Positions 1 to 40,131 of a stretch of DNA of 41,420 bases are shown here, piece after piece. Made by a program: the position numbers and the translations under genes. Position 1 is the stretch's first letter. The number at the start of each line of letters is the position of its first letter. Below the pieces are notes generated by a model. The model was not told the origin of the DNA, did not search any database, and worked only from the letters and a program-made list of their open reading frames with translations. Source of the DNA: a virus (lineage: Duplodnaviria > Heunggongvirae > Uroviricota > Caudoviricetes); the IMG/VR virus record IMGVR_UViG_2721755647_000003, positions 1 to 41,420 of that record, one strand, 5' to 3'.

Positions 1-1257
1 GTGCTTACCGATACAAAATTAAAAAACCTCAAGCCGCAGGACAAACTGTACAAAGTCTCCGATCGTGACGGGCTGTATGTAGCTGTGCTTACGTCAGGTA
101 CGGTCTCGTTTCGCTATGACTACCGTATCAACGGTCGCCGCGAAACACTGGTAATTGGGCAGTATGGGCGTGACGGTATCAGCCTGGCAGAAGCGCGAGA
201 AGAACTGATTGCTGCAAAGAAGCTGCTTAAAGCAGGCCAGTCACCGGCTGCGGCTAAACGTGACGGTATCAAAAAGATTCGTGGTGCCGAGACGTTTGCG
301 GTACATACCGACAGTTATATGAAACACGTCATCCTGGCTGACAGTACCCGCGCAATGAAGCAGGCGGTGATCGACCGTGACATACTTCCTGTTCTTGGTA
401 ACAAAATGATGGCTGAAATTACCACATCGATGGTTCGTGATTTGTGTGACCGGATTGTCGAACGCGGCGGCCGGGCAACAGCAGTGCAGGCCAGGGAGAT
501 CATCAGCAGCGTATACCGTCATGCCAATGACCGTGGTCATGGTTTGTTTAATCCTGCTGCTGACATTAAACCTTCGTCTATCGCCATATTTAAACCACGA
601 GAGCGAACACTGACACCAGAAGAAATTGGTCTGTTCTTCCGCACGCTGGATGCCATTGGTGCTATGGGCACTATGAAAATGGCTTTAAAGCTGGTGCTTA
701 TCACTATGGTTCGTAAAGGCGAATTCACCAATGCAACGTGGGACGAAATAGATTTTAAAAAATGGACATGGACAATTCCTTCAGACCGCATGAAGGGAAG
801 CCGGGCGCACGTTATTTACCTGCCTAAACAGGCACAGGATATATTGGTCGGGCTGCAGATGTGCGCTGGTGGAAGTGAATATCTGGTTCCTGGTCGTTAC
901 AACTTCCGGAAGCCATTATCTAATGCCGCGCTGAACTCTCTGATCGACAGAACGGTGAAAATAATAAATGAAAATGGTGAGCATATTCAGGACTTCACCG
1001 TACACGATATGCGCCGTACAGCCAGTACGTTATTGCATGAGGCTGGTTATCCTTCAGACTGGATTGAAAAGGCTCTGGCACATGAGCAGAAAGGTGTGCG
1101 CGCCGTATATAACAAAGCGGAATACGCCAGACAGCGCGCCTACATGTTGCAGCAGTGGGCAGATATGATTGATTCCTGGATTGACGGGGAGCATACGGAT
1201 CTGATTCCGTTCTCCCCGTCGAAGTTTGAGAAGTGGATGGAAGACAGTAATAAATAA
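1..1257 (+). CDS. int: Tyrosine site-specific integrase (P4-like), 418 aa; first codon at window edge, true start may lie 1-2 codons upstream
   Basis: Uninterrupted ORF from GTG at position 1; N-terminal LTDTKLKNLKP...DGLYVAV segment typical of P4-type integrases; C-terminal HDMRRTAST (HxxR) and VYNKAEY (catalytic Tyr) motifs. Confidence 0.9.
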   Translation: MLTDTKLKNLKPQDKLYKVSDRDGLYVAVLTSGTVSFRYDYRINGRRETLVIGQYGRDGISLAEAREELIAAKKLLKAGQSPAAAKRDGIKKIRGAETFAVHTDSYMKHVILADSTRAMKQAVIDRDILPVLGNKMMAEITTSMVRDLCDRIVERGGRATAVQAREIISSVYRHANDRGHGLFNPAADIKPSSIAIFKPRERTLTPEEIGLFFRTLDAIGAMGTMKMALKLVLITMVRKGEFTNATWDEIDFKKWTWTIPSDRMKGSRAHVIYLPKQAQDILVGLQMCAGGSEYLVPGRYNFRKPLSNAALNSLIDRTVKIINENGEHIQDFTVHDMRRTASTLLHEAGYPSDWIEKALAHEQKGVRAVYNKAEYARQRAYMLQQWADMIDSWIDGEHTDLIPFSPSKFEKWMEDSNK

Positions 1258-1259
1258 TT

Positions 1260-1919
1260 CTATCCTTCCTGGACTTTGGTAAGCGTCAGATTTCCGCAGA
1301 ACACTGCGCCGGTGTCGATGTACATTTGGTTTGCATACACCAGTGGGTGATGTGCTGGCGTATGACCGAAGATGAACAAATCGGCACCGGTTATCTCCGA
1401 GACAATACCGTCCTGCGCGTCGCTAACCCGCTCACGATTCCATATCACCATTTCTTCCGGTACTGGCTTATCGAATGCGTATTCGTTGTGCGGGTAGTCT
1501 GCGTGGCAGATGACGACCTTCTTATTGCCGGTAACCAGTTCGATAATCATCGGGAGGTTGGTAACCTTTGGCAGAAGGTATTTGAGTTGCACATCCTGCT
1601 CAGAATCAAGTTGGTGCCACCATCCACCGCCGTTTGACATCCAATGTCCGAAACTTCCGCCGTTGACCAGTGCATCCAGCATCATCTGCTCATGGTTGCC
1701 ACGAACAGCTCGGAACCACGGCATAGTAATCAAATCCAGGCATTCGACGTTTTCAGCGCCGCGGTCAACAAGGTCACCAACGGAAATAAGCAAATCGCGC
1801 GCCGGGTCGAATGAAACTTTGTCGAGTTCGTTCATCAGCAGCGTGTAGCACCCATGCAGATCGCCGACGACGAAGATATTGCACCAGTCAGCGCCATTGA
1901 TGCGTTGATATAGGTTCAT
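1260..1919 (-). CDS. Ser/Thr protein phosphatase, lambda-PPase-like metallophosphoesterase (219 aa)
   Basis: Metallophosphatase motifs GDLHG, GDLVDRG and GNHE all present; ATG at 1919 chosen (MNLYQ...) with GGGAG upstream; start overlaps stop of upstream gene (ATGA). Confidence 0.85.
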
Positions 1920-2566
1920 GCTGCACGCTCCCGCCCCTGGTTGTCTGTTGGTGACAGCGGAGCATTGCTGAATGCATTTGTTAATCCGCCGATATCCAAC
2001 GCGTATCCAGGGTGTAGTTGCACTGCCGGGTCTTCGCACTGATTACCCCAAACATCGAAGCCATGAGACGTCTGGCGGGCGAACAGTTCAATGCGAGAAA
2101 CATCGCCTAATAATTGCACAAGTTTTTCACGAACGATATCTGGCTTTCTTGAATGCTCAAGCCGCGGTGCGGTAAATGACTGAACGATCCCTGCATTAAT
2201 GCGCGTAGGTAGTTTTCCCTTTACCGCAAACAGGCAATCTTCACTATTGGCGCGAGTCATGTGTCCCATACCCATAACCAGTTTATCTGGTTGTCGACTA
2301 CCACATTTTATCCACGTGAATCCCTTCATGGTCATCAGACGGAATCCCCAGGCCTCAACAACTTTTAGTGCTTCGAGTGGTTGTGTTGGCACCCACCACA
2401 TGGCCAACAGACAGTTTTCATCGGCCAAATCCCACACAGGAAGGCGGCAGATATCCAGCACACTCATAACCGGATATTTAAAACCGGCACCGCGATTACC
2501 ATCTGCGGCTTTGTCCCGGTATACCCAGGGTGGATCTGCATAGATTAGTGTGTATTTCTTAGTCAT
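1916..2566 (-). CDS. DNA N6-adenine methyltransferase, MT-A70-like (216 aa)
   Basis: DPPW catalytic motif (IYADPPWVY) near N-terminus; ATG at 2566 preferred over GTG at 2578; translationally coupled to the phosphatase gene. Confidence 0.8.
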
Positions 2567-2810
2567 AAACCACCCCACAACATCCTATGCCGCTATAGTC
2601 GCCACGGCGAAGGCCGTTACCTTTTGTGATACATTGGTCCCTGCGAACCGCGATCCTTGCACGCTCAACATCACCAGAAGCAACATCCATACACTGAAGC
2701 CAAAGGTGAGCGGCAATGCGGAACTGCCCTTTTTTCTCTCTTTCAATCGCGCGTTTTTCGATCTCTATCGCCGCAGGAGTAACGGCGACAATCTTTGACG
2801 GACTGCGCAT
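2559..2810 (-). CDS. Hypothetical small protein (83 aa); start uncertain (alternatives at 2825 or GTG 2858)
   Basis: ORF in track; ATG at 2810 preceded by AAGG; 3' end overlaps the methyltransferase start. Confidence 0.4.
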   Translation of the reverse strand: MRSPSKIVAVTPAAIEIEKRAIEREKKGQFRIAAHLWLQCMDVASGDVERARIAVRRDQCITKGNGLRRGDYSGIGCCGVVYD

Positions 2811-2967
2811 TGAAACCTTGTTCATGTGATATTTTTCAAGTCGGCTTAACTTTCTCACTTAATCCAACCCTCTCTGAAAATTAATGCCAGCAGATAAAGC
2901 CATGCTGAAACAGAGGCCAGGAATAAGTACCATCCTGACCATTTGCTCCAGTGCCTTAGCAGCACAC

Positions 2968-3216
2968 TCATGCCGCGTTGCTCACGGGACGATATACACG
3001 TTGCTGAACATGAGGTTTTTTACCCTGGAACTCTACCGGGCTTGCTGCCTGACGTTCATCAAGCCAACGCTCAACTTCATCACGGTTCCATGCGCAGCGT
3101 TTATCGGTGATATACCATCGTTTAGGAAATTCCCCTGCGCGCTCCATACGGTCGATAGTGCTCCATGACAGTGGAACCACCGCCAGGAGTTCCTTCTTAC
3201 CTAATGCACCTTTCAT
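2968..3216 (-). CDS. AlpA-family HTH regulator / excisionase-like protein (82 aa)
   Basis: Segment LSWSTIDRMERAGEFPKRWYITDKRCAWNRDEVERWL matches the AlpA/Xis-type winged HTH; position next to the integration module. Confidence 0.8.
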   Translation of the reverse strand: MKGALGKKELLAVVPLSWSTIDRMERAGEFPKRWYITDKRCAWNRDEVERWLDERQAASPVEFQGKKPHVQQRVYRPVSNAA

Positions 3217-3265
3217 AAATACCTCTCTTGGTTGCAGTGCGGCGCGCGTGGCGCCGCGGTGGTGG

Positions 3266-4207
3266 TTACATAGATGTTTCGTTTAATTCTTCCCGACGAA
3301 CGCTGTAAACGTCGGTGGCTTTTGCCAGCAGTTCGTCATCATCTGAAAGTTTTTGTGCAATGTATTTGTAAGCCTTATCCAGTTCGGAGACAGTGCTGTA
3401 ATTCATCGCTGCGCTGGTAAAGGCCATCAGCATTTCTTCTGGATCACGGCTGTCCGATTTACGCGTTTGCTCATCAGGCTTTTTCGCTGGTTTAGCGTTG
3501 ATCAGACTGTTCATTCCCGCAGCAGTGGTCGTTTGCGGAGTAATGTCTCGCTCAACGCGCGGTGCCGTTTCCTGTAATTCGTCTGGGGTGTAGACGCCCA
3601 TGATTACGTCAGGACAGTGCAGGCGAGACCAGCGTTTTGTCGCAAGGTATGCGAGTTGTTGTTTCGGATCACTGGCCCAAAGTGTGGAGTTTCTTACCTG
3701 TGCTTGAGACAGCATTAACTCAAGCACTCGAGGTTGATCCTCGCCCTTCATGGTTGCCCATACGCGAACACCGCAGCCTTCTTCGTCTTTTAGAGTCCAG
3801 CCTGGTGCGATATATGGATTGCCGTTTTTGGATGTTTTCTCAACAAACTTACCGATCACGCGTTCCCACGGCCCGAACCACTCGTAGTTGATGCGATCTT
3901 TTGTTGGCGACATCGTTGAGATAACTGCGTTTACTAATTGGGCTTCATAACCTAGCGTGCCGTTCACAACATGGGTTTTCTGAGCCACGGCAAACGGGTT
4001 CATTCCCCACTGCGCAGCCTGCATTGCCACGGCCATGCAATCAGCTGGTTTCCCGGCGAGGTGCGCCGGTACCGTTACGCGGCTTTGCGCCATTACCTCG
4101 GCGAATTTCATCAGTTGGTTCAAGCCGTCTGGGCTGAAAATAGTTGCAGCAGTTCCAGCGATTGCTGTGTCTACTGGTGCGTTGATGTTTGCGATGTCGT
4201 TGCTCAT
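3266..4207 (-). CDS. recT: RecT/Bet-family single-strand annealing protein (313 aa)
   Basis: Resemblance to RecT/Red-beta proteins including an ERDITP segment; ATG at 4207 overlaps stop of upstream exonuclease gene (ATGA); typical partner gene order. Confidence 0.8.
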   Translation of the reverse strand: MSNDIANINAPVDTAIAGTAATIFSPDGLNQLMKFAEVMAQSRVTVPAHLAGKPADCMAVAMQAAQWGMNPFAVAQKTHVVNGTLGYEAQLVNAVISTMSPTKDRINYEWFGPWERVIGKFVEKTSKNGNPYIAPGWTLKDEEGCGVRVWATMKGEDQPRVLELMLSQAQVRNSTLWASDPKQQLAYLATKRWSRLHCPDVIMGVYTPDELQETAPRVERDITPQTTTAAGMNSLINAKPAKKPDEQTRKSDSRDPEEMLMAFTSAAMNYSTVSELDKAYKYIAQKLSDDDELLAKATDVYSVRREELNETSM

Positions 4208-5025
4208 ATGTACATATCCTGTTTGCGTGCCCACTCAGGGCGTTTAATGATTTCCACACCGCCCCATTCATCATTGATGCGGCATTCGTGATAGGTATTC
4301 AGATCCCGGCGGAACAGAGCGTGCCCGGCATCGACATCCTGCGCATCCAGCTCGAACACGCGTACCGGATACCGACCACAATCAATGCTTTCGCTCACGG
4401 CAAGAAAGAAAAAACCATGCGGCTGACCAGTAACCCTCATTGCGCCTTCGCGGTACATTGCGTCCTGCACGTGGTAGCGGAATTCCTCGATGTGGCGTGC
4501 AAAACGGTCCATATCTGCAACCTTTTTCACGTCGACGATCACGTTGTGCTCGTTCAGCCATTTGTCTGGACGAATTCGGCACAACTCCCCCGTCTCTTCA
4601 TCGTTCCAGTACATTGATGCTTCGCAGTAACCAGGTGCTTCCAGCATCCAGCGTGCCGCCGGGTGAGCCATTGCGCTATCACGCATCAGCTCCAGTTTCC
4701 GCCACTGCTCGGCATCAAGTACCGTAATCCCCATATCCGCCACATCACGAAGAAATTCCTCTTCGTCAGCTTTACCTTGTTTCGTCCGACGATCGAATTT
4801 CGGTGAAACAATGAAGCGTTTGTCGAACTCTCCAGGCTCCAGAAGCAGACAGTGCAATGCGGTTCCCATATCCAGTGCAGACTTTTTCTCTTCGTCTTCT
4901 GGTGCTGCCTGAACCCATTTAAGAAGCGCCGGATTCTTGGCAACCATGTCCAGTTGCGACTTACTCACGCCGTCACCGGCGTGGTAGTCTTCGTTGCTGA
5001 TGTCTAAATAAATTCCCGGTTTCAT
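4204..5025 (-). CDS. PD-(D/E)XK-type recombination exonuclease (RecE C-terminal domain / YqaJ-like), 273 aa
   Basis: N-terminus MKPGIYLDISNEDYHAGDGVSKSQL typical of phage exonuclease VIII-like nucleases; immediately upstream of and coupled to the RecT-like gene. Confidence 0.7.
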   Translation of the reverse strand: MKPGIYLDISNEDYHAGDGVSKSQLDMVAKNPALLKWVQAAPEDEEKKSALDMGTALHCLLLEPGEFDKRFIVSPKFDRRTKQGKADEEEFLRDVADMGITVLDAEQWRKLELMRDSAMAHPAARWMLEAPGYCEASMYWNDEETGELCRIRPDKWLNEHNVIVDVKKVADMDRFARHIEEFRYHVQDAMYREGAMRVTGQPHGFFFLAVSESIDCGRYPVRVFELDAQDVDAGHALFRRDLNTYHECRINDEWGGVEIIKRPEWARKQDMYI

Positions 5026-5321
5026 GCCGCGTCCCTCTGCCCATCAAGCTGATCAGCCAGATCCCAGCGGGCGATAATTGCCATTGCCTCGCGCCGGTAG
5101 GCATCCATTAGTTCTTCGAACTCAGGGCTGTCTTTAGCGGCCTCCAGTACTTCCTGGCGAACGCCTTTAACTGTTACAACGTCGAAAGTTGATGCCAGTT
5201 GATGAAGCCGGATACTCTCAATCAGTTCAACTTGTCGGTCATATAGCTGTTCTGACAGACGGTAGTCCTTGTCGAATGCCAGCATGATTTTTTGAAGATT
5301 TTTCTGCTGATTAACGTTCAT
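5022..5321 (-). CDS. Hypothetical early protein (99 aa)
   Basis: ATG at 5321 (MNVNQQ...) preceded by GGGAGGG; stop overlaps exonuclease start. Confidence 0.55.
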   Translation of the reverse strand: MNVNQQKNLQKIMLAFDKDYRLSEQLYDRQVELIESIRLHQLASTFDVVTVKGVRQEVLEAAKDSPEFEELMDAYRREAMAIIARWDLADQLDGQRDAA

Positions 5322-5323
5322 TA

Positions 5324-5476
5324 TCAGCCCTCCCATATCTCGTTATCGTTGGCCACATCGCGAGCTTCTTTGCTGACGAAAGCCCACTTAATGCCTTCCT
5401 GTAAGGTGCGGAACTTCCAGCTCATGAATCCGCATGCAGTTACGCAGTACCAACCGTTGATGATTTTCCACTGCAT
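5324..5476 (-). CDS. Small Cys/Trp-rich ORF (50 aa), not in the ORF track; possible Kil-like early-left protein
   Basis: ATG at 5476 to TGA at 5324, read by hand (MQWKIINGWYCVTACGF...); GAGG upstream; first ORF downstream of the PL-like operator cluster. Confidence 0.3.
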   Translation of the reverse strand: MQWKIINGWYCVTACGFMSWKFRTLQEGIKWAFVSKEARDVANDNEIWEG

Positions 5477-5629: not shown

Positions 5630-6214
5630 TTATTGTTTGTTTTTTTCGTTCTGGTTGATGACAAATTCAATGTAACTTTCGATCTTTGCTTTCTCGGTTT
5701 CGGGTAACAATGCGTAGCGCGAGCGATCATAGTTGATGGTCGCAGGGTCGTGCGGGTGAATCAGTAATTCATAGCCGTGACGCCCGAATGCGGATGCAAC
5801 ATTCTCCAGGGTGGAAATGGAAACGCTGACCTCATTGTTTAACAGGCGGCTGATTGTCACCTGGGCTACGCCGGATGCGCGGTGAAGTTTTCCCTGTGTT
5901 GAAAGGTCGCGGCTTTCGCTCATCCAGCGTTCCAGGTTGTGAGCCGCCAGCTGGCCAATGTCGCTTGGGCCGACAGGCTGAAAACCTTCCTGAGAAAGCG
6001 AGCGATCGATATCAAGCCAGTTACGGGGTTTATTGGCGGCAGCTTCAATTTTTCGTGCAACCTGGTCGCCGATAACCTTCTTGCCAAGAGCCCAGCGGTT
6101 TACCAGATTTGCCTGAGTTCCAAGTTTTTCAGCCATCCGCGTCTGAACACCATTGAATTCACGGTCGATCAAGTCGTTGAGATTTTGCCTGCGGACGTCC
6201 TGGATACTTTTCAT
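5630..6214 (-). CDS. Prophage repressor, CI-like, with two HTH (XRE-type) segments and no recognisable S24 peptidase domain (194 aa)
   Basis: HTH-like segments MAEKLGTQANLVNRWALGKK and VAQVTISRLLNNEVSVSISTLENVASAFG; divergent from a Cro-like gene; no GDSM-type Ser/Lys autocleavage motif seen. Confidence 0.75.
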   Translation of the reverse strand: MKSIQDVRRQNLNDLIDREFNGVQTRMAEKLGTQANLVNRWALGKKVIGDQVARKIEAAANKPRNWLDIDRSLSQEGFQPVGPSDIGQLAAHNLERWMSESRDLSTQGKLHRASGVAQVTISRLLNNEVSVSISTLENVASAFGRHGYELLIHPHDPATINYDRSRYALLPETEKAKIESYIEFVINQNEKNKQ

Positions 6215-6368: not shown

Positions 6369-6599
6369 ATGAGCGATAACGGACATTTCGATTTCAAAAA
6401 GCACTGGCTTGCACTTACTCCGGATGAGCGTGAAGCCTTCGCACAGGAAGCCGGAACGACGAGTCACTATATCCAGACTCACTTAACAGGTAAGCGCAAA
6501 ATGCCAGGTAAGGTATTGATGAATGGGCTTTTTAAAGCCTGTAAAACAAGACAATGGCTGCGCTCAAAAGCAGAATTGGCATACTTCTTCTACTCATGA
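6369..6599 (+). CDS. Cro-like / YdaS-type small HTH regulator (76 aa)
   Basis: Small basic ORF divergent from the repressor; sequence resembles YdaS/Cro-family proteins of Rac-like prophages. Confidence 0.65.
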   Translation: MSDNGHFDFKKHWLALTPDEREAFAQEAGTTSHYIQTHLTGKRKMPGKVLMNGLFKACKTRQWLRSKAELAYFFYS

Positions 6600-6965: not shown

Positions 6966-7775
6966 ATGAGCAGACATGCAACAGATTGGGCCTGGGAGAC
7001 AGATCCAGGTAGCTCATCATTAAAGCTCATACTGCTCTCGATGGCTGACAGAGCCGATGAATATAACCTCTGCTACCCCAGCATAGAACGCCTCGTTAAA
7101 GACACTTGCCTGAATAAAAAAACCGTGCAGGCCGGGCTTATATCGCTCATGAAAATGGGGCTTATTTCAGATACCGGAGAGAGAAAGGGAGCGACAAAAA
7201 GAGTGCGGGTTTTCTCTCTTAATATAACCAAAAACGGGAACATTAAAGGCAACCGGGAGGGGGGCAATGAACCCGAAAACGGGAATATACCCGAAAACGG
7301 GAATATACCCGAAAACGGGAATATACCCAAAAACGGGATGTTGAATGATCCCAAAAACGGGATCCAGAACCAGTCATATAACCAGTCATTTAACCAAGAG
7401 AGGGAGAGCAGGACAAAAAGCGGGGATTCTGTGCCTCATGACCCCGGAGCAAACAACGCCGTGATGAATAACTTTGTTCCTCCTGGTGGGCCAGGGCAAT
7501 TAGGCAAATTTGTCATGCATGAACAATGGCAGCCATCAGATGACTTTCTTCGGAAAAGCTCATTGCAGGGGATCTACCTGGACAGTCTGCCAACGGCACA
7601 GGAACTTGCAGAGTTCAGAATTTACTGGATGGCTGAGGGTAAGGCATACCATCAGGCACAGTGGGAGCAGAAGCTGGCAAGGCGGCTGCAGATTAGCAGA
7701 CAGAAGCAATCAACATTACCTGATAACAACGTTCCGCACTGGAACAGCCCTGAAGCATGGGAGGATTTCTTGTGA
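6966..7775 (+). CDS. Replication initiation protein, lambda O-like (N-terminal winged HTH, internal repeat linker, DnaT-like C-terminal domain), 269 aa
   Basis: N-terminal DWAWETDPGSSSLKLILLSMADRADEYNLCYPSIERL replication-protein HTH; C-terminal region DnaT-like; internal ENGNIP repeats encoded by the iterons. Confidence 0.8.
   Translation: MSRHATDWAWETDPGSSSLKLILLSMADRADEYNLCYPSIERLVKDTCLNKKTVQAGLISLMKMGLISDTGERKGATKRVRVFSLNITKNGNIKGNREGGNEPENGNIPENGNIPENGNIPKNGMLNDPKNGIQNQSYNQSFNQERESRTKSGDSVPHDPGANNAVMNNFVPPGGPGQLGKFVMHEQWQPSDDFLRKSSLQGIYLDSLPTAQELAEFRIYWMAEGKAYHQAQWEQKLARRLQISRQKQSTLPDNNVPHWNSPEAWEDFL
7228..7367. repeat. Iteron array inside the O-like gene (putative origin of replication): about six copies of CC(C/A)(G/A)AAAACGGGA, three of them perfect 18-bp tandem units
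   Basis: Tandem CCCGAAAACGGGAATATA at 7272-7289, 7290-7307, 7308-7325; degenerate copies at 7228, 7326, 7350. Confidence 0.7.
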
Positions 7776-32044: not shown

Positions 32045-32045
32045 C

Positions 32046-32083: not shown

Positions 32084-32160
32084 AACGAATGCCGCCTCCG
32101 CCCGGGCGGGAATCCGCAGAACGCCCACCGCAGCGGGAGCCGTCAGCGGCAGTATCGTTG

Positions 32161-32673: not shown

Positions 32674-32689
32674 CTAAACTGCGTAAAAA

Positions 32690-33553
32690 TTATTTCCTGC
32701 CACTTCTGTAGTATATGTTGCGACCATTTTTGGTCACATTAACAACATGCCCCTTTGTTTCTACTTTGTTATTTGTTGCCTTATATACTTCAAAGTCAAA
32801 CCATGATATATGACTTATTTCGTCTATAGATACCATAATTTCTAGACCTTGAACTTTCTTTTTGCTTATCCCTTTTATCGCAGCACTGCGCTTAATTTGG
32901 ATTTCACCTGGGTAAGCGTTTGTAAATGTAACAGATAAATTTTCTTTGTTTCTGTACCCTGACATTAAAGGAACAAAAGATATGTGTTGGTGTGGCCCTT
33001 GATTTTCCGTTAGCTCACCAGAACCATTTATTATTCCAACGTATACTTTATTTGATGATAAAGTAATTAACATTGGTTTCTTAGGATCTGATTCGATTGC
33101 ATCAAGCAATAGCAAATCTAAAGAACCCTGGGAGTACGTTTTTCGCAATACTCTAGCTTTCATTGCCTCTGATATTTTGTCATAAATATCACGTTTATAA
33201 AAACAACCTAAAAGAAGATCTTTTAGCCAAACAAAAGATACATAACACAAAGAGAAGCAAATTGATGTGGCTGAGAGAAGAAGCAGCCACATGTAAATTC
33301 TATCTGTTTCTGGTTTTGATGTTACATTAAAAGTTTCCACCATATCGTGAACTAGGTGAAAATCAGGCCATTTATATTTTATAGCGGCTGCAATTATTAC
33401 TGATGCAACAAGGCAATATGTACCTAGTGCCGCTACCTTCATATAAAGAAGCTGGCCTTCGTGTCGGTATAAACGGAAATAATGATACTGGTTAGCGGTT
33501 ATCATAATATAACCGCTAACCAGGATTGGGATAATTAGAAGAGCTAGCAACAC
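32690..33553 (-). CDS. AT-rich integral membrane protein of unknown function (287 aa; about 3 TM helices plus C-terminal soluble domain)
   Basis: Three hydrophobic segments in the first 110 residues; GTG start overlapping the upstream stop (TAGTG). Confidence 0.6.
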   Translation of the reverse strand: MLLALLIIPILVSGYIMITANQYHYFRLYRHEGQLLYMKVAALGTYCLVASVIIAAAIKYKWPDFHLVHDMVETFNVTSKPETDRIYMWLLLLSATSICFSLCYVSFVWLKDLLLGCFYKRDIYDKISEAMKARVLRKTYSQGSLDLLLLDAIESDPKKPMLITLSSNKVYVGIINGSGELTENQGPHQHISFVPLMSGYRNKENLSVTFTNAYPGEIQIKRSAAIKGISKKKVQGLEIMVSIDEISHISWFDFEVYKATNNKVETKGHVVNVTKNGRNIYYRSGRK

Positions 33554-33762
33554 TACTTCCTTACAGTGGCAAGATCCTGTTTAACAATTGCAGCAGCGAG
33601 ACGACGCATCTCCTTAACCTCAGGAAGCTCAGAAATTTGCTGTGATGAGATATATACTCCACCACGCTTGTTAACCTGCGCTGACGCCGGAACTTCTGCA
33701 TTTTTTGCCTGAGGGCTGGGTGCATTATCCCTCGTTTTTGTACGAGCGAACCAAAATCCCAT
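33553..33762 (-). CDS. Small basic protein (69 aa), first gene of the AT-rich operon; possible DNA-binding or regulatory protein
   Basis: ATG at 33762 with strong GAGGAGG RBS; operator palindrome 27 bp upstream. Confidence 0.6.
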   Translation of the reverse strand: MGFWFARTKTRDNAPSPQAKNAEVPASAQVNKRGGVYISSQQISELPEVKEMRRLAAAIVKQDLATVRK

Positions 33763-33788
33763 ATCTCCTCCTCATGTAAACACATGGT

Positions 33789-33803
33789 TTACCTTTAAGG
33801 TAA
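33789..33803. promoter_or_regulatory. Perfect palindrome TTACC-TTTAA-GGTAA upstream of the AT-rich operon
   Basis: Exact sequence; a TAATAT -10-like hexamer lies immediately upstream on the minus strand. Confidence 0.55.
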
Positions 33804-33868
33804 TATTACGCGAATCTACATCACATCGCCAATGATTATTTTAAAGGCACATCCCTGTGCCGCCGCCG

Positions 33869-34579
33869 TCAGAAGAACCCTGCCTTGTCGTTGATGTACT
33901 CCGCGTGGGTCTGGATATCACGCAGGCATTTACTCACACCGACGATGTAGCAGAACATGGTGGTCAGCTCCGCCGCCGCGCCCGATACATCGTGCCCGTC
34001 TTCCTGTAACTGGTTTAGCAGATTCATCAGCAGTGAGTTCTCCGTCAGGCCGAGAACACCAGACGGCGAATGAATCAGGCTACGGTAGCCGGGCTTCAGT
34101 GGGGCACTGTAGGTTTTGTTCTCTATCTTCATCGCCTGCATTACTGCTGACGCCGTGGCGTTGGCTACCTGGTCGGCAACCATCTTTATGCGTTCTTCCT
34201 GCGGGAGCGAGTTTTTAATGTAGCTTCCGGTGCGGCGGATCTGAGGAAGAACCTCACCTGTAACCCATTTACGAAAGCGGTAGGGGATAGTGCCTGGTGT
34301 CACCGCATCGCGGCAGCGGAGGATCAGTGTGTAGAGGCCTGACTCGGAGATGATGTTGATCTCTTTTACTCGGCTGTCAAAAATTGCACGATGTTCATGC
34401 CCTATGTTGAACATAGACCTTTCATCATCATCCAGTTTTTCAAGTGCTTGGGTGACGTTTTGGATACGCAGCGCACTACAAACGTCTTGGGCTACAAACC
34501 ATGGTTGGCCATCGATAATGATGGAACGGATAGGGTTAACAGATTCAAATTTGAAGATGGCAGTTTGAGCATTAGCCAT
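33869..34579 (-). CDS. Bro-N domain antirepressor-like protein (236 aa)
   Basis: N-terminal FKFESVNPIRSIIIDGQPWFVAQDVCSALRIQN...ESGLYTLILRC Bro-N pattern; ATG at 34579 with GGAGAT RBS. Confidence 0.75.
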   Translation of the reverse strand: MANAQTAIFKFESVNPIRSIIIDGQPWFVAQDVCSALRIQNVTQALEKLDDDERSMFNIGHEHRAIFDSRVKEINIISESGLYTLILRCRDAVTPGTIPYRFRKWVTGEVLPQIRRTGSYIKNSLPQEERIKMVADQVANATASAVMQAMKIENKTYSAPLKPGYRSLIHSPSGVLGLTENSLLMNLLNQLQEDGHDVSGAAAELTTMFCYIVGVSKCLRDIQTHAEYINDKAGFF

Positions 34580-34733
34580 GGTGGTTATCTCCACTTAGTG
34601 ATTTTAATCACCACCGCAACGCCAATTACTGGTGGTGAACTGGACAAGGTTGGCGTACCGGCCTAAGTGGTACCGGCGTCCTTTCGGACCCCTGCCCAGC
34701 CCACCATAATTCGGATATAGCTGTGCTTAACGC

Positions 34734-34758
34734 ATAAAAAAACCACGTCTGGCGTGGT
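34734..34758 (-). terminator. Intrinsic terminator between the two Bro-related genes
   Basis: Minus strand reads ACCACG-CCAGA-CGTGGT followed by TTTTTTTAT. Confidence 0.5.
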
Positions 34759-34848
34759 ATGCGCCACTTAGTAACTCGGGACGCCAATCCCGGCACTGGA
34801 TTTTGCCAGTACCCGATTACTATGGCACAAGAGGAGTGCGATGTAAAT

Positions 34849-34863
34849 TTACCGCAAAGGTAA
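34849..34863. promoter_or_regulatory. Perfect palindrome TTACC-GCAAA-GGTAA
   Basis: Exact sequence, in the intergenic region between the two Bro-related genes. Confidence 0.5.
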
Positions 34864-34894
34864 ATATAAGCACTCCACTTGGTAATTGCAAACC

Positions 34895-35152
34895 TTATCT
34901 GGTTTGTTTTCGTAATTGTTCGGCACAATAGTCGAGATGTGTTTGCAGATCCCGCATAGACATCTGTGAGCTGGTGACGTAGTTAATCAGTGCAGTCAGT
35001 TCGGCAAGTGGGCCATCGACATTAAATCCATCCTTATCGAGATCCCGGAGTAATTTCATCAAGTGCGATCCCTCCACCAGTGACCTGACGCCTCCCGGCG
35101 TGTGAATCCTTTCGGTAAATCCGTCTTCCAGTGGATAGTGATACTGCTGCAT
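34895..35152 (-). CDS. Small protein (85 aa) homologous to the C-terminal domain of the adjacent Bro-N protein
   Basis: Aligns by eye to the Bro-N protein C-terminus (TPGGVRSLVEGSHLMKLLRDL...MRDLQTHLDYC versus SPSGVLGLTENSLLMNLLNQL...LRDIQTHAEYI); ATG at 35152 with GGAG RBS. Confidence 0.6.
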   Translation of the reverse strand: MQQYHYPLEDGFTERIHTPGGVRSLVEGSHLMKLLRDLDKDGFNVDGPLAELTALINYVTSSQMSMRDLQTHLDYCAEQLRKQTR

Positions 35153-35228
35153 CTTATCTTCTCCATGCAATAACTGTATAAATATACAGTATCAAATAAT
35201 TTGTTTGCTATCCAGCACGTTTTGCAAA

Positions 35229-35243
35229 TTACCTGAAAGGTAA
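35229..35243. promoter_or_regulatory. Perfect palindrome TTACC-TGAAA-GGTAA upstream of the tail fibre gene (identical to the 15321 copy)
   Basis: Exact sequence; TATGTGGTTTTT plus a GGTAAT half-site follow at 35275-35294. Confidence 0.55.
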
Positions 35244-35347
35244 TATCTTTTCGTATTTATGGGTTATCTATCCATATGTGGTTTTTCAGGTAATAGAATA
35301 ACCAGATATGCGGCGCAACGGGTGCTGCGACTATCTGGAGATTTAAC

Positions 35348-38104
35348 ATGACGGTCTCAACCGAAGTTGACCACAACGAATACACCGGTAACGGCGCTAC
35401 GACATCATTTCCGTATACCTTCCGTATTTTCAAAAAATCCGACCTGGTTGTTCAGGTGTCTGACCTGAACGGGAACGTAACAGAATTGGTTCTGGATACC
35501 GGTTATACGGTAACTGGGGCGGGCACTTATAGTGGCGGTTCTGTTGTTCTTCCGTCGCCGCTTGCTGCTGGATGGCGAATTACGATAGATCGTGTGCTTG
35601 ATGTAGTGCAGGAGACAGACCTTCGCAATCAGGGAAAATTTTTCCCCGAAGTGCATGAAGATGCTTTTGACTACCTGACGATGCTGATCCAGCAATGTTT
35701 TGGGTGGTTCAGACGTGCATTGATGAAACCATCTTTGCTTGCAAAATATTACGATGCAAAGCAAAACAGAATTTCTAACCTTGCAGATCCATCACTTGAG
35801 CAGGATGCTGTAAATAATCGCTCAATGCGTAATTATGTTGATGCTGCAATCGCCGGAGTTGTTGGTGGTTTTGGTTGGTTTATTCAGTATGGTTCTGGAG
35901 CAGTATACCGAACGTTCCAGGATAAGATGCGGGATAACGTTAACGCTCTTGATTTTGTTCCGTTTGAGCAAAGATATGCTGCATTAAATTTTGAAGTTGA
36001 TGCGTCTGAATGGTTAATTAATGCGATAAATTCTGGTGCAAGTGTCGTTAGAATACCTGCAGGTAAATGGATGATTTCTAAGAACATAGATGTGCCTCCT
36101 GGAGTGTCATTAATTGGTGATGGCATTGATTATTGGGATACATATAGACCAGCGCCTGAAAGATTATTAAAAAGTTGGAGTAAAGGAACCCATCTTGTAT
36201 TTACTGGTGATGGAGAAAAAAACAAATATTTTTTTAACATCTCTAATGAAAGACCAGTTAAAATTGTTGAAGGGATATCTTGTAAGTTCACTGAGTTTAC
36301 AAATGAAGATTCTGTAGGTGTTACTCCTGCTACACCAAAAGCCATGAGCGTAGCTGTTAGTATCAACAGGGCATCACAGTTACGCAACCTGAGAATAATG
36401 GTAAGTAAAAATGGTATTGAAGGATACAATAACCCTGATTCTTATTCATTGGGTGATGACTGGGATATAGGGTTGCATGTATACGATAGCTGTGATTCAG
36501 TTATTGATAACGTACAGATTGTCGGCTATTGGAGGGTAAAAGGACTACTACTGACAGAAAATGACGGGAGCCTTTCAATGAAGGGAAATCCTGAAAAAAC
36601 GCACTTTAATAACGTTTATGTCCAGTCAGGGATCGCGATAAGGAATAGCCCTCAGATTGATCTTGTAAGTAATACTGAAAGCTCAGTGACATTTAAACAT
36701 AAAAAGTCGATGAGAATAACTTCAGTTAAACAGTTTAAAATTGCTGGCAGTGAATCAGTATATACGTATTCAGATGCATCATTTGATGGAGCTAACATCA
36801 CACTATCTGGTATTTCTCCTGAAATACAAGGTACAATAAGTGTAATCAGGTTTCCGTCAATTGGTAATAATTTTAGCGGGACTGTTTTTGAGAATACAGT
36901 AGCCACTACTCTTGATCATACATCAGGTAAGCCATCAGAATACTTTGGCCTTCCTGCATCCTTTGCATTAGAGGTTGATGGTTTCCCTGTTCGTAATTTA
37001 AGGTTTGATAAATTCAAAGCTCAAACAACATTTGATAAAGGAAATTGCATTTTTGGTGATTGCCGTGATGTTAAAATAACATCATCTGAGTTTGAAAATG
37101 GAATTATGATTGCGTATAACCTGACCGAGACTCAGGGTTATACAGGAAATCTTAGATTTTTTGCTTCTGATCTTCAGAGCAGCGTTAACACAAGTGAGTT
37201 TAAACCAAGAGACGCATTTGTAGACAATAGACAAATAAAAACGGAGTTTACTGATGGTTCGTTCATTATAAAGAACTGGAGGCCTACAGATACAAAAATA
37301 CAATGGTCGTCTGGAGTAGATGCTATTGTTCTTAGAGAGTCACCTGACGAACAATCAGACGGAAATATTTACGGGTATCACATTGATGGTAAAAGATGGA
37401 TTAATGTTAGTGGATATAACAAAGATATAAATATTTCATCAAGAAACTTAAGCGTAAAAAACCATGGTGATGACTCTGCAGTTATTAATATATTCGGCGA
37501 CTCTGGAAATATTGCCATTAAAGGTAATTTTTCACCAATTATTGATAACAGCAAATCTCTTGGTGCACCATCATTTAGATGGGCACAGGTTTATTCTGCG
37601 AACGGTTCGATAAACACATCAGATGGTAGAGAAAAAAGTGAACCGATTAGTACAAGTGAGCTCAGCTTGTATATGTCTCGTGGTTATGAAGGTGATGCAA
37701 TTCTGGATGCATGGGGAGATATCAGGATTGTAGCTTTTCGCTGGCTTGATGCCGTCAGGGAAAAGGGAGATGGTGCCCGCTGGCATTTTGGTGTTATAGC
37801 ACAACAAGTGAGAGACACTTTCCTCGCGCATGGGATTGATGGAACCAGATTTGGCCTTCTCTGTTACGATGAATGGGATGATAAATACGCGCCAGTGATG
37901 GCGGTAAGGATGATCACTAAAGTTGTGGATGGCGTCGAAATTGAGATGGAAGAAGAATACGAAACAGAAGAGCGAACTCTGGTTTGCAAGGCTGGAAATA
38001 GGTGGGGTATCCGTACTGACCAGTGTTTATGGCTTGAGTCAGCTTATTTGCGTAGAAGAATCGAAAAAATAGAATCACGTCTTGCAATGCTTAAAAGTAG
38101 CTAA
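35348..38104 (+). CDS. Tail fibre / tailspike protein (918 aa): conserved N-terminal virion-attachment region, AT-rich central receptor-binding region, C-terminal chaperone-like domain
   Basis: N-terminus MTVSTEVDHNEYTGNGATTSFPYTF typical of podoviral tail fibre anchors; central part Asn/Ser/Ile-rich and AT-rich; C-terminal region resembles intramolecular-chaperone domains (inference). Confidence 0.75.
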   Translation: MTVSTEVDHNEYTGNGATTSFPYTFRIFKKSDLVVQVSDLNGNVTELVLDTGYTVTGAGTYSGGSVVLPSPLAAGWRITIDRVLDVVQETDLRNQGKFFPEVHEDAFDYLTMLIQQCFGWFRRALMKPSLLAKYYDAKQNRISNLADPSLEQDAVNNRSMRNYVDAAIAGVVGGFGWFIQYGSGAVYRTFQDKMRDNVNALDFVPFEQRYAALNFEVDASEWLINAINSGASVVRIPAGKWMISKNIDVPPGVSLIGDGIDYWDTYRPAPERLLKSWSKGTHLVFTGDGEKNKYFFNISNERPVKIVEGISCKFTEFTNEDSVGVTPATPKAMSVAVSINRASQLRNLRIMVSKNGIEGYNNPDSYSLGDDWDIGLHVYDSCDSVIDNVQIVGYWRVKGLLLTENDGSLSMKGNPEKTHFNNVYVQSGIAIRNSPQIDLVSNTESSVTFKHKKSMRITSVKQFKIAGSESVYTYSDASFDGANITLSGISPEIQGTISVIRFPSIGNNFSGTVFENTVATTLDHTSGKPSEYFGLPASFALEVDGFPVRNLRFDKFKAQTTFDKGNCIFGDCRDVKITSSEFENGIMIAYNLTETQGYTGNLRFFASDLQSSVNTSEFKPRDAFVDNRQIKTEFTDGSFIIKNWRPTDTKIQWSSGVDAIVLRESPDEQSDGNIYGYHIDGKRWINVSGYNKDINISSRNLSVKNHGDDSAVINIFGDSGNIAIKGNFSPIIDNSKSLGAPSFRWAQVYSANGSINTSDGREKSEPISTSELSLYMSRGYEGDAILDAWGDIRIVAFRWLDAVREKGDGARWHFGVIAQQVRDTFLAHGIDGTRFGLLCYDEWDDKYAPVMAVRMITKVVDGVEIEMEEEYETEERTLVCKAGNRWGIRTDQCLWLESAYLRRRIEKIESRLAMLKSS

Positions 38105-38333
38105 ACATTGAGGATTAATCTTAGTAGCCGGATTGCTTATTACGAAGTAAGTTCGGCTTCTTTCTTCTTTAATTGTGACTGAGAGGTACACTAGACCATT
38201 TTCTGAACGAAATTTTCATTGCCGTAGAAGGCAGAAATACAGCGTTTTGAGGTAACTATTATCCTTAAATGGTTTATTATGTGTGCATCTTCAATAGTAA
38301 GGAGATTGTTATGCGTAATAAACGGTGTTCATT

Positions 38334-38738
38334 ATGTCAGCCCATCTAACTACTGATTCTTTAAATCAATGGCTTAGTATGAGCTCTCTTGCTGCAGTTA
38401 TCGTAGGCGTTCCGCCAGAGGTGGCGCTCGGTGCTCTTGCTGGTGCGGTAATTTTTGTTACCTCTGCGGTAGAGTATCCAATTCATCGTCGCGTACTCTT
38501 ATCGATGCTTAGCTTTCTCTGTGGACTTCTTTTCTACAAACCAGCAGCATCAATTCTTATCGGCATAGCCAGCCTGATCCCTACCATCACGCAGGACTCT
38601 TTTGAAAAAGGGATTGTTTTCTCTGCTGGCGCATTCGTGTCAGCAATTGTCGCTGTGCGTATTGGTATATGGCTCTACCACCGTTCAGACAATCCACGCG
38701 ATTTAATTCCGGGGAGAAAAGACGATGGTAACGCATGA
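38334..38738 (+). CDS. Putative holin / lysis membrane protein (about 134 aa; start uncertain)
   Basis: Several hydrophobic helices; first gene of the lysis cassette; a strong AAGGAG RBS serves an overlapping 12-codon ORF at 38311 in another frame. Confidence 0.55.
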   Translation: MSAHLTTDSLNQWLSMSSLAAVIVGVPPEVALGALAGAVIFVTSAVEYPIHRRVLLSMLSFLCGLLFYKPAASILIGIASLIPTITQDSFEKGIVFSAGAFVSAIVAVRIGIWLYHRSDNPRDLIPGRKDDGNA

Positions 38739-39033
38739 GTTTTTTTTGCTTATCACCAATGCAGTTATTTGTACTGGCATAGCAATTCGCGTTGTCACAT
38801 TCCGGCGTAACGGCTCTCAACATCGAAGATGGGGAGGGTGGCTTGCTTATTTCCTTATTGTTGCTGCGGCCAGTATTCCTGTTCGTGTCGTCTATGCAAT
38901 CTGGTTACGCACGCCAATGGCTGTGGATTTATCTGAGGTCATTATCAACGCTGTCATGCTTGCCGCGGTTATTAAAACACGCGGTAACGTTGTTCAGATT
39001 TTCAAAATATCGAGGTCTAAACATGGAGATTAA
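38725..39033 (+). CDS. Second putative holin-like membrane protein (102 aa)
   Basis: Three hydrophobic segments, basic C-terminus; GGGGAG RBS; overlaps both flanking genes. Confidence 0.55.
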
Positions 39034-39652
39034 ACAATTCCAGCGAGCTGCTGGTATTAGCGAGGCGCTGGCCGCACGCTGGTTCTCGCATATAACTTCT
39101 GCGATGAAAGAGTTTGGTATCAGCAAAGCAGAAGATCAGGCAATGTTTATTGCTCAAGTCGGGCATGAGTCTGGGGGCTTCACCAGGTTGCAGGAGAATT
39201 TCAACTACAGTGTCAGCGGACTGGCTAACTTCGTTCGGGCTGGGCGTCTCACTCAGGGGCAGGCTAATGCGCTGGGTCGCCATGCTGGTGAACCACCATT
39301 GCCACTCGAGCGCCAGCGAGCGATTGCCAATCTGGTGTACAGCAAACGCATGGGGAACAATGCCCCAGGCGATGGCTGGAATTACCGTGGCCGCGGACTT
39401 ATCCAGATTACCGGTTTGAATAACTATCGTGATTGCGGAAACGGCCTGAAAGTGGACCTGCTGGAGAATCCTGAACTGTTGGCGCAGGACGAATACGCGG
39501 CTCGTAGCGCGGCGTGGTTCTTCTCCAGCAAAGGTTGCATGAAGTATACCGGCGATATTGCACGTGTAACTCTGATTATCAATGGTGGCAGGAATGGCAT
39601 CGACGACCGGCGCGCGCGGTACGTCACTGCCAGTAAGGTGCTGGCTGTATGA
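39023..39652 (+). CDS. Endolysin, glycoside hydrolase family 19 (chitinase-like lysozyme), 209 aa
   Basis: [12 protein letters not shown] and [15 protein letters not shown] motifs typical of GH19 endolysins. Confidence 0.85.
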
Positions 39653-40131
39653 TCTGGTCATTCGTAAAAGCATACCGTAAACAGTTGATTATCATGGCGG
39701 TGCTTGCTGTTCTGGTCATATCAGGAGTTGTTGCCTGGAATGTGCACGGCAGTCGTCAGTACGACGCTGGGTATGCACAGGCGAAAGAAGACCGCAAAAC
39801 CGAAGATGAGAGAATTCGTCAGCACTACGAACAGGAGAAATCGATCAATGAACGTGAAGCGCAGCAGAGGATCGACCAGGCGCGCAATGATGCTCTTGAT
39901 GCTGCCGCTCGCGCTGGCCGGTTGCAGCAACAGCTCGTTGCCATCCGTGAGCAGCTCAGGCACTATAACGCCATTGTCGGCGCTGGGTCGTCAGCCGCAG
40001 ACACCGGAGTTTTGCTTGCCGACGTGTTCAGCAAATCTCTCGAGAGAAATAGACAACTGGCAGAGTATGCTGACCGGGCAGCCGAAGCCGGAAGAGTCTG
40101 CGAAAAACAGTACGACACCCTGACCAGATAG
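39649..40131 (+). CDS. Rz-like i-spanin (160 aa)
   Basis: N-terminal TM helix, coiled-coil periplasmic domain; coupled to endolysin; contains an embedded +1-frame lipoprotein gene. Confidence 0.8.
39887..40123 (+). CDS. Rz1-like o-spanin lipoprotein embedded in the Rz gene (78 aa)
   Basis: [13 protein letters not shown] lipobox signal followed by Pro-rich sequence, wholly inside Rz in another frame. Confidence 0.75.
   Translation: MMLLMLPLALAGCSNSSLPSVSSSGTITPLSALGRQPQTPEFCLPTCSANLSREIDNWQSMLTGQPKPEESAKNSTTP

Follow-up and report, generated by a model that had tools for sequence, protein, structure and literature searches.

An apparently complete phiV10/epsilon15-like temperate podophage prophage at the guaA site of Escherichia coli

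Results

Genome organization and relatives

The DNA analyzed here, IMG/VR record IMGVR_UViG_2721755647_000003 (positions 1-41420, referred to throughout as the window), very probably holds an apparently complete temperate podophage prophage of the phiV10/epsilon15 type (genus Uetakevirus), integrated at guaA of Escherichia coli. An earlier note, made from the sequence without database searches, had described positions 1-40131 as a mosaic in which a lambdoid early region is joined to a T7-like podoviral virion module, with lysis genes at the far end. A listing of open reading frames (ORFs), together with Pfam and PHROGs, places every gene module named there on 1-40131 and in the order given. 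By the ORF listing, the plus strand carries 1-1257, a leftward block extends to 6214, and plus-strand genes run nearly unbroken from 6369 to 32044. A mixed junction of low guanine-plus-cytosine (GC) content follows at 32161-35170, plus-strand genes resume at 35348-40131, and minus-strand genes occupy 40350-41420.

Megablast against a collection of 50,697 phage records aligned the first 25 kb of the window at 97% identity, over 80-88% of its length, with Escherichia phages vB_EcoP_PAS61, phiv142-3, vB_EcoP_ZX5 and HEMP4. TL-2011b covered 78% of these 25 kb, the phiV10 alignment began at the terminase genes, and Salmonella phage epsilon15 and Enterobacter phage Tyrion aligned at 77-81% identity. 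Any one phage covered only about 50% of the second half. All 51 window proteins were also compared by tblastn with lambda, P22, phiP27, T7, epsilon15, phiV10 and TL-2011b. Outside three variable blocks, nearly all are 84-100% identical to phiV10 or TL-2011b proteins; identities to epsilon15 proteins range from 36 to 94%. Tblastn, Pfam and annotated relatives together identify the collinear core genes of Uetakevirus, namely TerS/TerL, a gp8-type portal, a GP7-type capsid, a gp10 staple, tail proteins A and B, internal proteins, a tailspike, and a lysis cassette beside attP-int. The genus name is that given to phiV10, epsilon15 and PAS61 in the taxonomy of their records.

The phages phiV10, PAS61, ZX5, phiv142-3, HEMP4 and TL-2011b (the phiV10 group) have the same gene order as the window from int to the lysis cassette, and most of their early, packaging, head and tail proteins fall in the 84-100% range. 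They have the same attachment core and guaA site, the same tRNA and the same pair of repressor and Bro-N antirepressor, but differ from the window in the ejection cassette (25031-32042), the tailspike body and the junction cargo. Epsilon15 has the module order and all core virion families in common with the window (portal 81%, adaptor 84%, nozzle 88%, TerL 94% and lysis cassette 83-91% identical). The recombination genes of the window have no tblastn match in epsilon15, the replication genes of the two differ, tblastn finds no P homologue in epsilon15, and the O-antigen conversion genes of epsilon15 are absent from the window.

Intergenomic similarity was estimated with an approximate BLASTN-based measure of our own, distinct from VIRIDIC. 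By this measure the window is 63% similar to phiV10, 61% to PAS61, 56% to TL-2011b (56-63% for the phiV10 group) and 34% to epsilon15; T7, lambda and P22 reach 0.2, 1.5 and 1.6%, respectively. Recognized members of the genus stand at 38% (phiV10 versus epsilon15) and 78% (phiV10 versus PAS61) among themselves. The genus guideline of the International Committee on Taxonomy of Viruses is about 70% nucleotide similarity, and the window falls below it because about 11 kb has been replaced. Three replaced blocks account for the shortfall, the largest of them being 25031-32042. The prophage is a further member of a known lineage with an already described architecture, and probably represents a species of its own.

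Attachment site and prophage boundaries

Three features define the right end of the window:

40242-40258, plus strand: attR core ATTGAGTGGGAATGATT, which repeats the 3' end of guaA and occurs once in the window
40350-40889, minus strand: yfgI, a host gene outside the phage
40905-41420, minus strand: yfgH, a host gene outside the phage

The attR core is the right prophage boundary. Its sequence is exactly that of the published ZX5 attP/attB core, which lies at the 3' end of guaA, and the same 17-bp core forms the direct repeat that flanks a related prophage between yfgI and guaA in E. coli Combat2C1. The end of the prophage, formerly placed at 40131, therefore lies about 125 bp farther on. Base 1 of the window is the GTG start codon of the integrase, and in relatives attL is located about 190 bp upstream of int; attL and guaA are outside the window because it opens at this codon. 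The prophage measures about 40.3 kb to attR, plus about 190 bp beyond the left edge, and viable relatives have 39-40 kb.

The position between guaA and yfgI is the published attachment site, and epsilon15-like prophages have been found at one single E. coli integration site (Bobay et al., PMC3603311). The junction between Rz and yfgI, covered to at least 80%, is present in 488 of 5,426 complete E. coli genomes (about 9%). The host segment at 40350-41420, which matches Pfam PF17358 (DUF5384), is present in 5,421 of these genomes and annotated there as yfgI and yfgH. The right-hand 1.8 kb of the window is 100% identical to Combat2C1, where the Prokaryotic Genome Annotation Pipeline (PGAP) lists an Rz-like protein followed by yfgI and yfgH. 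Despite this identical flank, the Combat2C1 prophage is 62% similar to the window.

Virion genes and their distant T7 ancestry

Portal, head, tail and small internal proteins are encoded in one plus-strand series:

15647-17326, plus strand: portal of the T7 gp8 family (PF12236, 623 bits)
17323-20527, plus strand: head genes for a Bbp19-like protein, a 233-residue "protease"/scaffold-like protein, the major capsid protein (GP7 family), a Bbp16-like cement protein, a gp9-like protein and a gp10-like staple (PF25181, PF20911, PF21190, PF21628)
17616-18317, plus strand: the 233-residue protein, called "protease" or "peptidase" in relatives (phrog_458)
20524-21132, plus strand: tail adaptor (tubular tail protein A) with the predicted T7 gp11 fold (AlphaFold2 model and Foldseek)
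21132-23603, plus strand: tail nozzle (tubular tail protein B), T7 gp12 homologue (PDB 8ck1_A "Tail Nozzle", E 9e-218; hhalign)
23603-24067, plus strand: internal virion protein A (phrog_308 internal virion protein, listed for the A/B pair)
24067-24612, plus strand: internal virion protein B of the T7 gp14 family (PF24072 T7_gp14, 31.2 bits against a cut-off of 27)

T7 gp8, run as a control, scores 379 bits on PF12236, which puts it and the window portal into one Pfam family; the window portal also matches the 8ck0 portal in PDB at E 4e-178. There was no accepted Pfam match for tail A (PF17212), tail B (PF25675) or TerL, and for the two tail proteins none even at E up to 10; fold and profile-profile methods were used for tail A and B because Pfam gave no matches. 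Homologues of the adaptor were collected, 29 were aligned, and the AlphaFold2 model (predicted local distance difference test 87) was compared with PDB by Foldseek. This gave 26 matches at E of 0.001 or less, mostly annotated podophage adaptors, including those of PhiM1, P-SCSP1u and HRP29 and the KP32 tail tubular protein A. Best placed was Carin-1 (8ck1_E, 2.7e-16), followed by LME-1 (1.4e-9). T7 gp11 (7box_M) matched at 2.1e-6 with probability 1.00 and template-modeling (TM) scores of 0.58-0.61; matches to T7 gp11 and the KP32 protein fell between E 2e-6 and 4e-5, and neck proteins of long-tailed phages appeared only above E 0.07. Sequence identity of the adaptor is 32% to Carin-1, 18% to LME-1 and 12-14% to T7 gp11.

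For the nozzle, a nine-sequence profile of the epsilon15 group was aligned by hhalign with a seven-sequence profile of Autographiviridae gp12. The two matched with 98% probability (E 2.3e-13) over 502 columns, spanning residues 21-569 of the window protein and 17-600 of T7 at 15% identity; a reversed-sequence control gave E 0.44, and T7 gp12 as a single sequence reached 67% probability. Tblastn found 221 nozzle relatives, including proteins of phages annotated as tail tube B, and the family extends to phages of Pseudomonas, Bordetella, Vibrio, Pelagibacter and Liberibacter. Internal virion protein A matches T7_Gp13 below threshold (E 0.07). An SLT domain is common to a window ejection protein and T7 gp16, although the protein that bears it stands elsewhere in the order, and nothing links a window protein directly to gp15. 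At E<1e-3, tblastn matches none of the window proteins to a T7 virion gene. The T7 relationship of the virion module is ancient and can be seen only by profile and fold comparison.

Consistent with this picture, Hardies et al. (2016, PMC4819975) placed the tubular tail proteins A and B and internal virion proteins (IVP) A, B and D of epsilon15 in one homology group with those of T7. They assigned epsilon15 gp17 to IVP-D, could not confirm IVP-C, and found the terminase and capsid of epsilon15 to group with siphoviral ones. The PDB structures matched by the portal, adaptor, nozzle and capsid of the window all come from podophages (Carin-1, LME-1, BPP-1, epsilon15 and T7-like), so the siphoviral clustering against which the earlier note had set its proposal is not seen for the tail. 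Its T7-like order of portal, tubular proteins A and B, ejection proteins and fibre or tailspike is borne out by distant homologues of T7 gp8, gp11, gp12 and gp14 and, weakly, gp17.

The order that the window has in common with T7 runs from portal through capsid genes, A, B and internal proteins to fibre and lysis genes, the T7 gp17.5 holin and spanins following gp17. Homology is seen for the portal at the level of the Pfam family, for the adaptor in its fold, for the nozzle at a profile-profile E of 2e-13, and for the gp14-like protein; both phages have an SLT-bearing internal protein. The terminase, however, lies after the fibre in T7 and before the portal in the window, and the SLT domain is at the N-terminus of the last large internal protein, gp16, in T7 but in the first large internal protein here. 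The T7 capsid protein belongs to another Pfam family, whereas the window has a GP7 capsid with cement and staple proteins. T7 has a fibre, an RNA polymerase and replication genes of its own; the window has a tailspike, homologues of the T7 RNA polymerase and replication genes were not found in it, and its gene content is that of a temperate phage.

The nearest solved portal, connector, nozzle and capsid are those of Carin-1 (Cobetia), with LME-1 (Legionella) providing the nearest solved adaptor and nozzle and BPP-1 (Bordetella) the capsid; all three differ from the window in host and in the non-structural genome. The major capsid protein matches BPP-1 (3j4u, 4e-128), Carin-1 (8cjz) and epsilon15 (3j40), all podophages. 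It scores higher against BPP-1 (3j4u) than against epsilon15 gp7 (3j40). The capsid shell genes at 18326-20527 (major capsid, cement, gp9-like and staple) encode proteins only 36-43% identical to those of epsilon15, as against 81-88% for portal, adaptor and nozzle on either side; within the genus, the virion module is thus itself mosaic. For the 233-residue protein, neither Pfam nor NCBIfam yields a peptidase domain, and PDB yields no relative. A scaffolding protein is suggested by the acidic, low-complexity sequence and by the position between portal and capsid gene, which in T7 is that of the scaffold gp9.

Variable segments: ejection proteins, junction cargo and tailspike

The right-hand virion region carries the following features:

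24612-31481, plus strand: three large ejection proteins, an 873-residue SLT transglycosylase, a 565-residue protein and an 850-residue IVP-D-like protein (PF01464 SLT; phrog_1044, phrog_3003, phrog_684)
31484-35170, mixed strands: variable junction between ejection genes and tailspike
From 31484, plus strand: 186-residue ORF with a hydrophobic N-terminus, first ORF of the junction
32058-32075, no strand assigned: terminator-like hairpin 3' of the 186-residue ORF (terminator scan)
32161-33553, minus strand: pair of membrane proteins, 170 and 287 residues, with hydrophobic N-terminal segments and low GC
Within 31484-35170, minus strand: 69-residue ORF
33869-34594, minus strand: Bro-N antirepressor (Pfam Bro-N)
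34895-35170, minus strand: gp19-like gene, the 3'-most junction gene in window order
35348-38104, plus strand: tailspike (phrog_1171, E 1.6e-299; PF13884 S74 C-terminal intramolecular chaperone)
38325-40131, plus strand: lysis cassette of two holin-family proteins, a GH19 endolysin and a DUF2514 Rz-like spanin (PF16931, PF05449, PF00182, PF10721)
39848-40123, plus strand: embedded Rz1 lipoprotein gene (lipobox LAGC)

Divergence from known phages begins at 25031, about 140 codons into the gene of the SLT protein, and defines a block of about 7 kb (25031-32042). In the megablast search, only the first 430 bp of 24600-31500 (24601-25030) matched any phage in the collection. The block has 55.3% GC versus 50.5% for 1-25030. 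Its ORFs are long, uninterrupted and tightly packed, with full-length PHROG matches at E 1e-270 to 1e-282, and the cassette is present at 95% identity or more in 60 of the 5,426 complete E. coli genomes. For the 565-residue protein, the closest homologues among phages are those of Stenotrophomonas phages BUCT708 and BUCT709 (39%) and Pseudomonas phage Ab31 (31%), with no enterobacterial-phage homologue detected; the 850-residue protein is 23% identical to phiV10 gp20. TL-2011b, phiV10, Combat2C1 and the window each have a different set of two or three genes in the ejection slot, making at least four types. PGAP names the 565-residue protein a "V-type ATP synthase subunit E family protein" (NZ_CP133923.1, 2236-3933, corresponding to window 27235-28932), a label that is probably a spurious coiled-coil match.

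Variable genes occur at four places, namely beside int, between TerL and portal, between ejection genes and tailspike, and, in relatives, between tailspike and lysis genes, in keeping with the proposal that cargo sits at module junctions. The junction genes at 31484-33762 have a GC content of about 36% (35.7-35.8%). Elsewhere the slot between ejection genes and tailspike holds Arc/Ant and a YafO toxin (TL-2011b), two YafO toxins (Combat2C1) or a DUF4760 protein (M21816). In the window, part of this "cargo" is a second immunity region, represented by the Bro-N antirepressor. The membrane pair at 32161-33553 has no Pfam, NCBIfam or PADLOC match, and its PHROGs are families of unknown function; superinfection exclusion and defence are candidate roles for this cargo. 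A perfect palindrome with a 15-bp stem, CTGGTTAGCGGTTATATTATGATAACCGCTAACCAG, lies at 33488-33523 within the first codons of the 287-residue ORF, and could be an operator or terminator, or a sign that the true start codon is farther downstream.

The first 165 or so residues of the tailspike (about 18%) align to phiV10, epsilon15 and TL-2011b at 66-72% and form the particle-binding domain, which is followed by a variable receptor-binding body of 38.6% GC. M21816, which has the same ejection cassette, carries instead a tailspike with an endosialidase catalytic domain by PGAP. The gap between tailspike and lysis genes is only 220 bp here. O-antigen modification genes occupy this slot in phiV10, PAS61 and epsilon15 and are absent from the window, which, unlike its phiV10 relatives, has no O-antigen acetyltransferase between tailspike and lysis genes.

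The lysis genes are in the same order in phiV10 and epsilon15. As the earlier note had it, they come after the fibre or tailspike gene and not after a Q gene; a Q-family protein was not detected. They lie at the far end of the prophage map only because attP is located between Rz and int. Since the T7 holin and spanins also come after the fibre gene, this position would fit T7-like synteny, with no need to treat it as an oddity in its own right.

Early, replication and packaging genes

The left-hand part of the prophage comprises:

1-1257, plus strand: P4-type tyrosine integrase (Pfam Arm-DNA-bind_3, central and catalytic domains)
1260-1919, minus strand: NinI-like Ser/Thr metallophosphatase (Pfam Metallophos; phrog_246, E 9e-108)
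1916-5336, minus strand: leftward operon for an MT-A70 adenine methyltransferase, a PerC-like protein, an AlpA-like protein (excisionase/regulator), RecT, a PD-(D/E)XK (DUF3799) exonuclease and a 104-residue protein (Pfam)
5630-6214, minus strand: 194-residue prophage repressor, with a YdaS-like helix-turn-helix (HTH) at residues 21-61 and HTH_3 at residues 106-147 (Pfam)
6369-6599, plus strand: cro-like early regulator (phrog_35 transcriptional repressor), divergent from the repressor gene
6966-8557, plus strand: two replication genes, initiator then helicase loader
6966-7775, plus strand: initiator with HTH_36 and DnaT domains (PF13730 and PF17948; NCBIfam DnaT)
7757-8557, plus strand: lambda P-family helicase loader (PF06992, 191 bits)
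8675-11584, plus strand: accessory early-right genes for DUF1064, Eae-like, Ead/Ea22, dATP/dGTP pyrophosphohydrolase (DUF550) and DUF551 proteins (Pfam)
11690-12037, plus strand: gp49-like putative regulator (phrog_536), last gene of the accessory block 8675-12037
12078-14260, plus strand: terminase small and large subunits (TerS PF03592 Terminase_2, 98.5 bits; phrog_51 and phrog_2)
14351-14722, minus strand: Gp49/Sf6 gp66-family protein (PF13876), cargo of the junction between TerL and portal
14922-14998, minus strand: tRNA-Arg(TCT) (ARAGORN), lying between TerL and portal in reverse orientation to the virion genes

The integrase is 99% identical by tblastn to those of phiV10 and TL-2011b, with a marginal match in the lambda genome, and the same P4-like integrase has been described in the ZX5 paper. 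The NinI-like protein is 67% identical to lambda NinI and is the sole nin-gene homologue in the window. Its gene stands beside int in PAS61 also, and is absent from phiV10, TL-2011b and epsilon15; phiV10 and TL-2011b carry DUF1382 instead. Proteins of the leftward operon are 97-99% identical to their phiV10 counterparts, and no member of the Exo/Bet/Gam or Xis families was detected in the window.

The repressor is 100% identical to phiV10 p40. Pfam finds only HTH domains in it and no S24 (LexA-like) peptidase domain. The position of the cro-like gene is kept in phiV10 and epsilon15. In ZX5, the functions of the homologous repressor, antirepressor and integrase have been verified by overexpression, and overexpression of repressor and antirepressor shifted the balance of lysis and lysogeny as an antirepressor model predicts. 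A Bro-N antirepressor together with a repressor that has no cleavage domain points to antirepressor-driven induction. No antiterminator family was found in any scanned ORF with Pfam or PHROGs, and tblastn gave no match to lambda N or Q or to P22 gp24 or gp23; homologues of lambda N, Q, cII and cIII were likewise not detected in the window.

The lambda-style early layout and the assignment to a temperate podophage lineage agree with gene order and with the Uetakevirus relatives. Likeness to lambda is seen in a divergent pair of repressor and cro-like genes between leftward recombination and rightward replication operons, in the P loader, in Ea22 and NinI, and in the embedded Rz/Rz1 genes. The window differs from lambda in its P4-type integrase, which has attP on its 5' side and is read opposite to the leftward operon, in the ea-type genes at the nin position, and in lysis genes that lie away from any Q gene. 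Integration and immunity, called lambdoid in the earlier note, involve a P4-type integrase and a repressor without S24.

Of the "O/P" replication pair proposed there, P holds: the loader is 30% identical to lambda P by tblastn. The initiator, with its HTH_36 and DnaT domains, has no tblastn match to lambda O or P22 gp18. The accessory block matches lambda ea22 (56%, partial) and P22 eaA, eaD and eaE by tblastn. By homology, what lies between P and the terminase is a set of ea-type genes, not the nin-like genes that had been supposed, the only nin homologue being NinI beside int. A nin gene in the leftward operon and ea-type genes 3' of the replication genes are the opposite of the lambda positions. 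The DUF1064 protein has a marginal match (E 7e-4) to the T7 gene 3 region, which is the only tblastn match of window proteins to the T7 genome. No window protein matches T7 RNA polymerase, DNA polymerase or primase-helicase by tblastn, and no such Pfam domains are present.

The terminase had been called P27-type, a label that the domain searches contradict. In phiP27, run as a control, TerS is PF05119 (Terminase_4) and TerL combines PF03354 (ATPase) with PF20441 (nuclease). The window TerS is PF03592 instead and has no NCBIfam match; TerL has neither P27-type domain and no Pfam match better than E 0.026 with the threshold set at E 10; and neither subunit matches the phiP27 genome by tblastn. 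PHROGs identify phrog_2 as large terminase. RefSeq notes on the TerL of relatives cite Sf6 gp2 (HHpred) and P1 PacB, and a 2025 paper on epsilon15 packaging contains nothing on terminase class. The adjoining tRNA is annotated by PGAP in the Combat2C1 prophage as well, and one tRNA is reported in the ZX5 paper.

Discussion

The gene content, gene order, homologies, integration site and population frequency observed here are those of a phiV10/epsilon15-like prophage at guaA, and its mixed layout invites other explanations. One is a chimera of recent origin, with a T7-like (Autographiviridae) virion module taken up by a lambdoid phage. The portal and one internal protein do fall in T7 Pfam families, the order from portal to fibre is that of T7, and homologues of lambda P, Ea22 and NinI are 30-67% identical to the lambda proteins. 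We nevertheless consider a recent chimera highly improbable. T7 virion genes, RNA polymerase, DNA polymerase and primase-helicase are all without tblastn matches, adaptor and nozzle retain only 12-14% and 15% identity to their T7 counterparts, and nucleotide similarity to either supposed parent is negligible (T7 0.2%, lambda 1.5%). The whole arrangement is, moreover, common to phages of Escherichia, Salmonella, Enterobacter and Klebsiella and, together with the wide distribution of the nozzle family, argues that the combination of modules is old. Modules described as joined are thus real as a mixed layout, but not in the sense of a recent fusion. A P22-like (Lederbergvirus) lambdoid prophage is scarcely credible: at 1.6% nucleotide similarity, no virion, terminase, replication or lysis protein matches P22, the portal falls in the family of T7 gp8, N/gp24, Q/gp23 and nin genes were not found apart from NinI beside int, and lysis follows the tailspike. 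What recalls P22 is a temperate podophage layout with an antirepressor region and cargo between ejection genes and tailspike, as in sieA-mnt-arc-ant, and several ea-type genes with P22 homologues.

The variable segments could also be taken as signs of a defective or composite prophage, either decaying or formed when a second element inserted into a phiV10-like remnant. The GC content of 25031-32042 (55% versus 50.5%), the lack of any isolated-phage DNA match there, the 36% GC of 31484-33762 and a left breakpoint inside the SLT protein gene would all suit such an origin. Decay is hard to reconcile with ORFs of 873, 565 and 850 residues that are uninterrupted and match PHROGs over their full length, or with a cassette that 60 complete E. 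coli genomes retain with at least 95% identity. The Pfam scan found no transposase or second integrase, prophage length fits the 39-40 kb of viable relatives, and these relatives hold other, equally complete cassette types at the same position. We therefore regard a defective or composite element as unlikely, and favor an apparently complete Uetakevirus prophage.

Several points weigh against that assignment. The window shows only one prophage end, attL lying outside it. Similarity to the nearest phages (61-63%) is under the 70% genus guideline, yet inside the span of the present genus Uetakevirus. The combination of ejection cassette, junction cargo and tailspike occurs in no sequenced phage and in no complete E. 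coli genome; among the latter, matches to 28000-38300 do not extend beyond 69% of that interval. TerL had no assignable family in Pfam, NCBIfam or PDB (sequence search). Finally, the inducibility, expression, regulation, particle formation and viability of this prophage are all properties that we infer. By homology to phages of known morphology, such as ZX5, the prophage would be expected to form podovirus particles and to follow a temperate cycle.

The gene families suggest how this Uetakevirus prophage may operate. The two-HTH repressor, having no self-cleavage domain, would keep the prophage silent, and induction would most likely proceed via the Bro-N antirepressor encoded between ejection genes and tailspike. 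By family assignment, the leftward operon is predicted to supply RecT/exonuclease recombination and an adenine methylase, and the rightward operon an initiator with a DnaT domain and a loader of the lambda P type that serves the host DnaB helicase. DNA would be packaged by a Terminase_2-type small subunit and the large terminase into a predicted HK97-fold capsid resembling those of BPP-1 and epsilon15, which has cement and staple proteins and a gp8-family portal. The short tail would consist of a gp11-like adaptor and a gp12-like nozzle. Internal proteins, among them the gp14-like protein and the SLT transglycosylase, are presumably ejected to build a channel across the cell envelope. A putatively O-antigen-specific tailspike would recognize the host, and a cassette of holin, GH19 endolysin and spanin, distal in the rightward-transcribed virion block, is predicted to lyse the cell.

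The phage group, its guaA site, an antirepressor-based switch and the distant T7 ancestry of tail and ejection proteins have all been published. What the window adds bears on the replacement of ejection cassettes and junction cargo, and so on the diversification of infection and exclusion functions in temperate podophages. We tentatively propose, as a possibility with the balance against it, that the three large ejection proteins act as an exchangeable cassette in phiV10-like virion modules that are otherwise nearly identical; separately, and as doubtfully, the membrane pair at 32161-33553 could be an undescribed superinfection exclusion system. If the cassette swaps are adaptive, for instance in matching the structure of the cell envelope or in evading defences that sense or block ejected proteins, the ejection proteins would be a second determinant of host range or defence evasion beside the tailspike.

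The practical value of the analysis lies in the correct annotation of a common type of E. coli prophage, whose terminase, initiator and "nin" genes are not P27-type, O and nin. A labeling problem of another kind occurs in the RefSeq record of TL-2011b (NC_019445.1), where 41360-42430 is host DNA, E. coli yfgI/yfgH that is 99% identical to window 40350-41420, and where the yfgH homologue is labeled "DNA methyltransferase".

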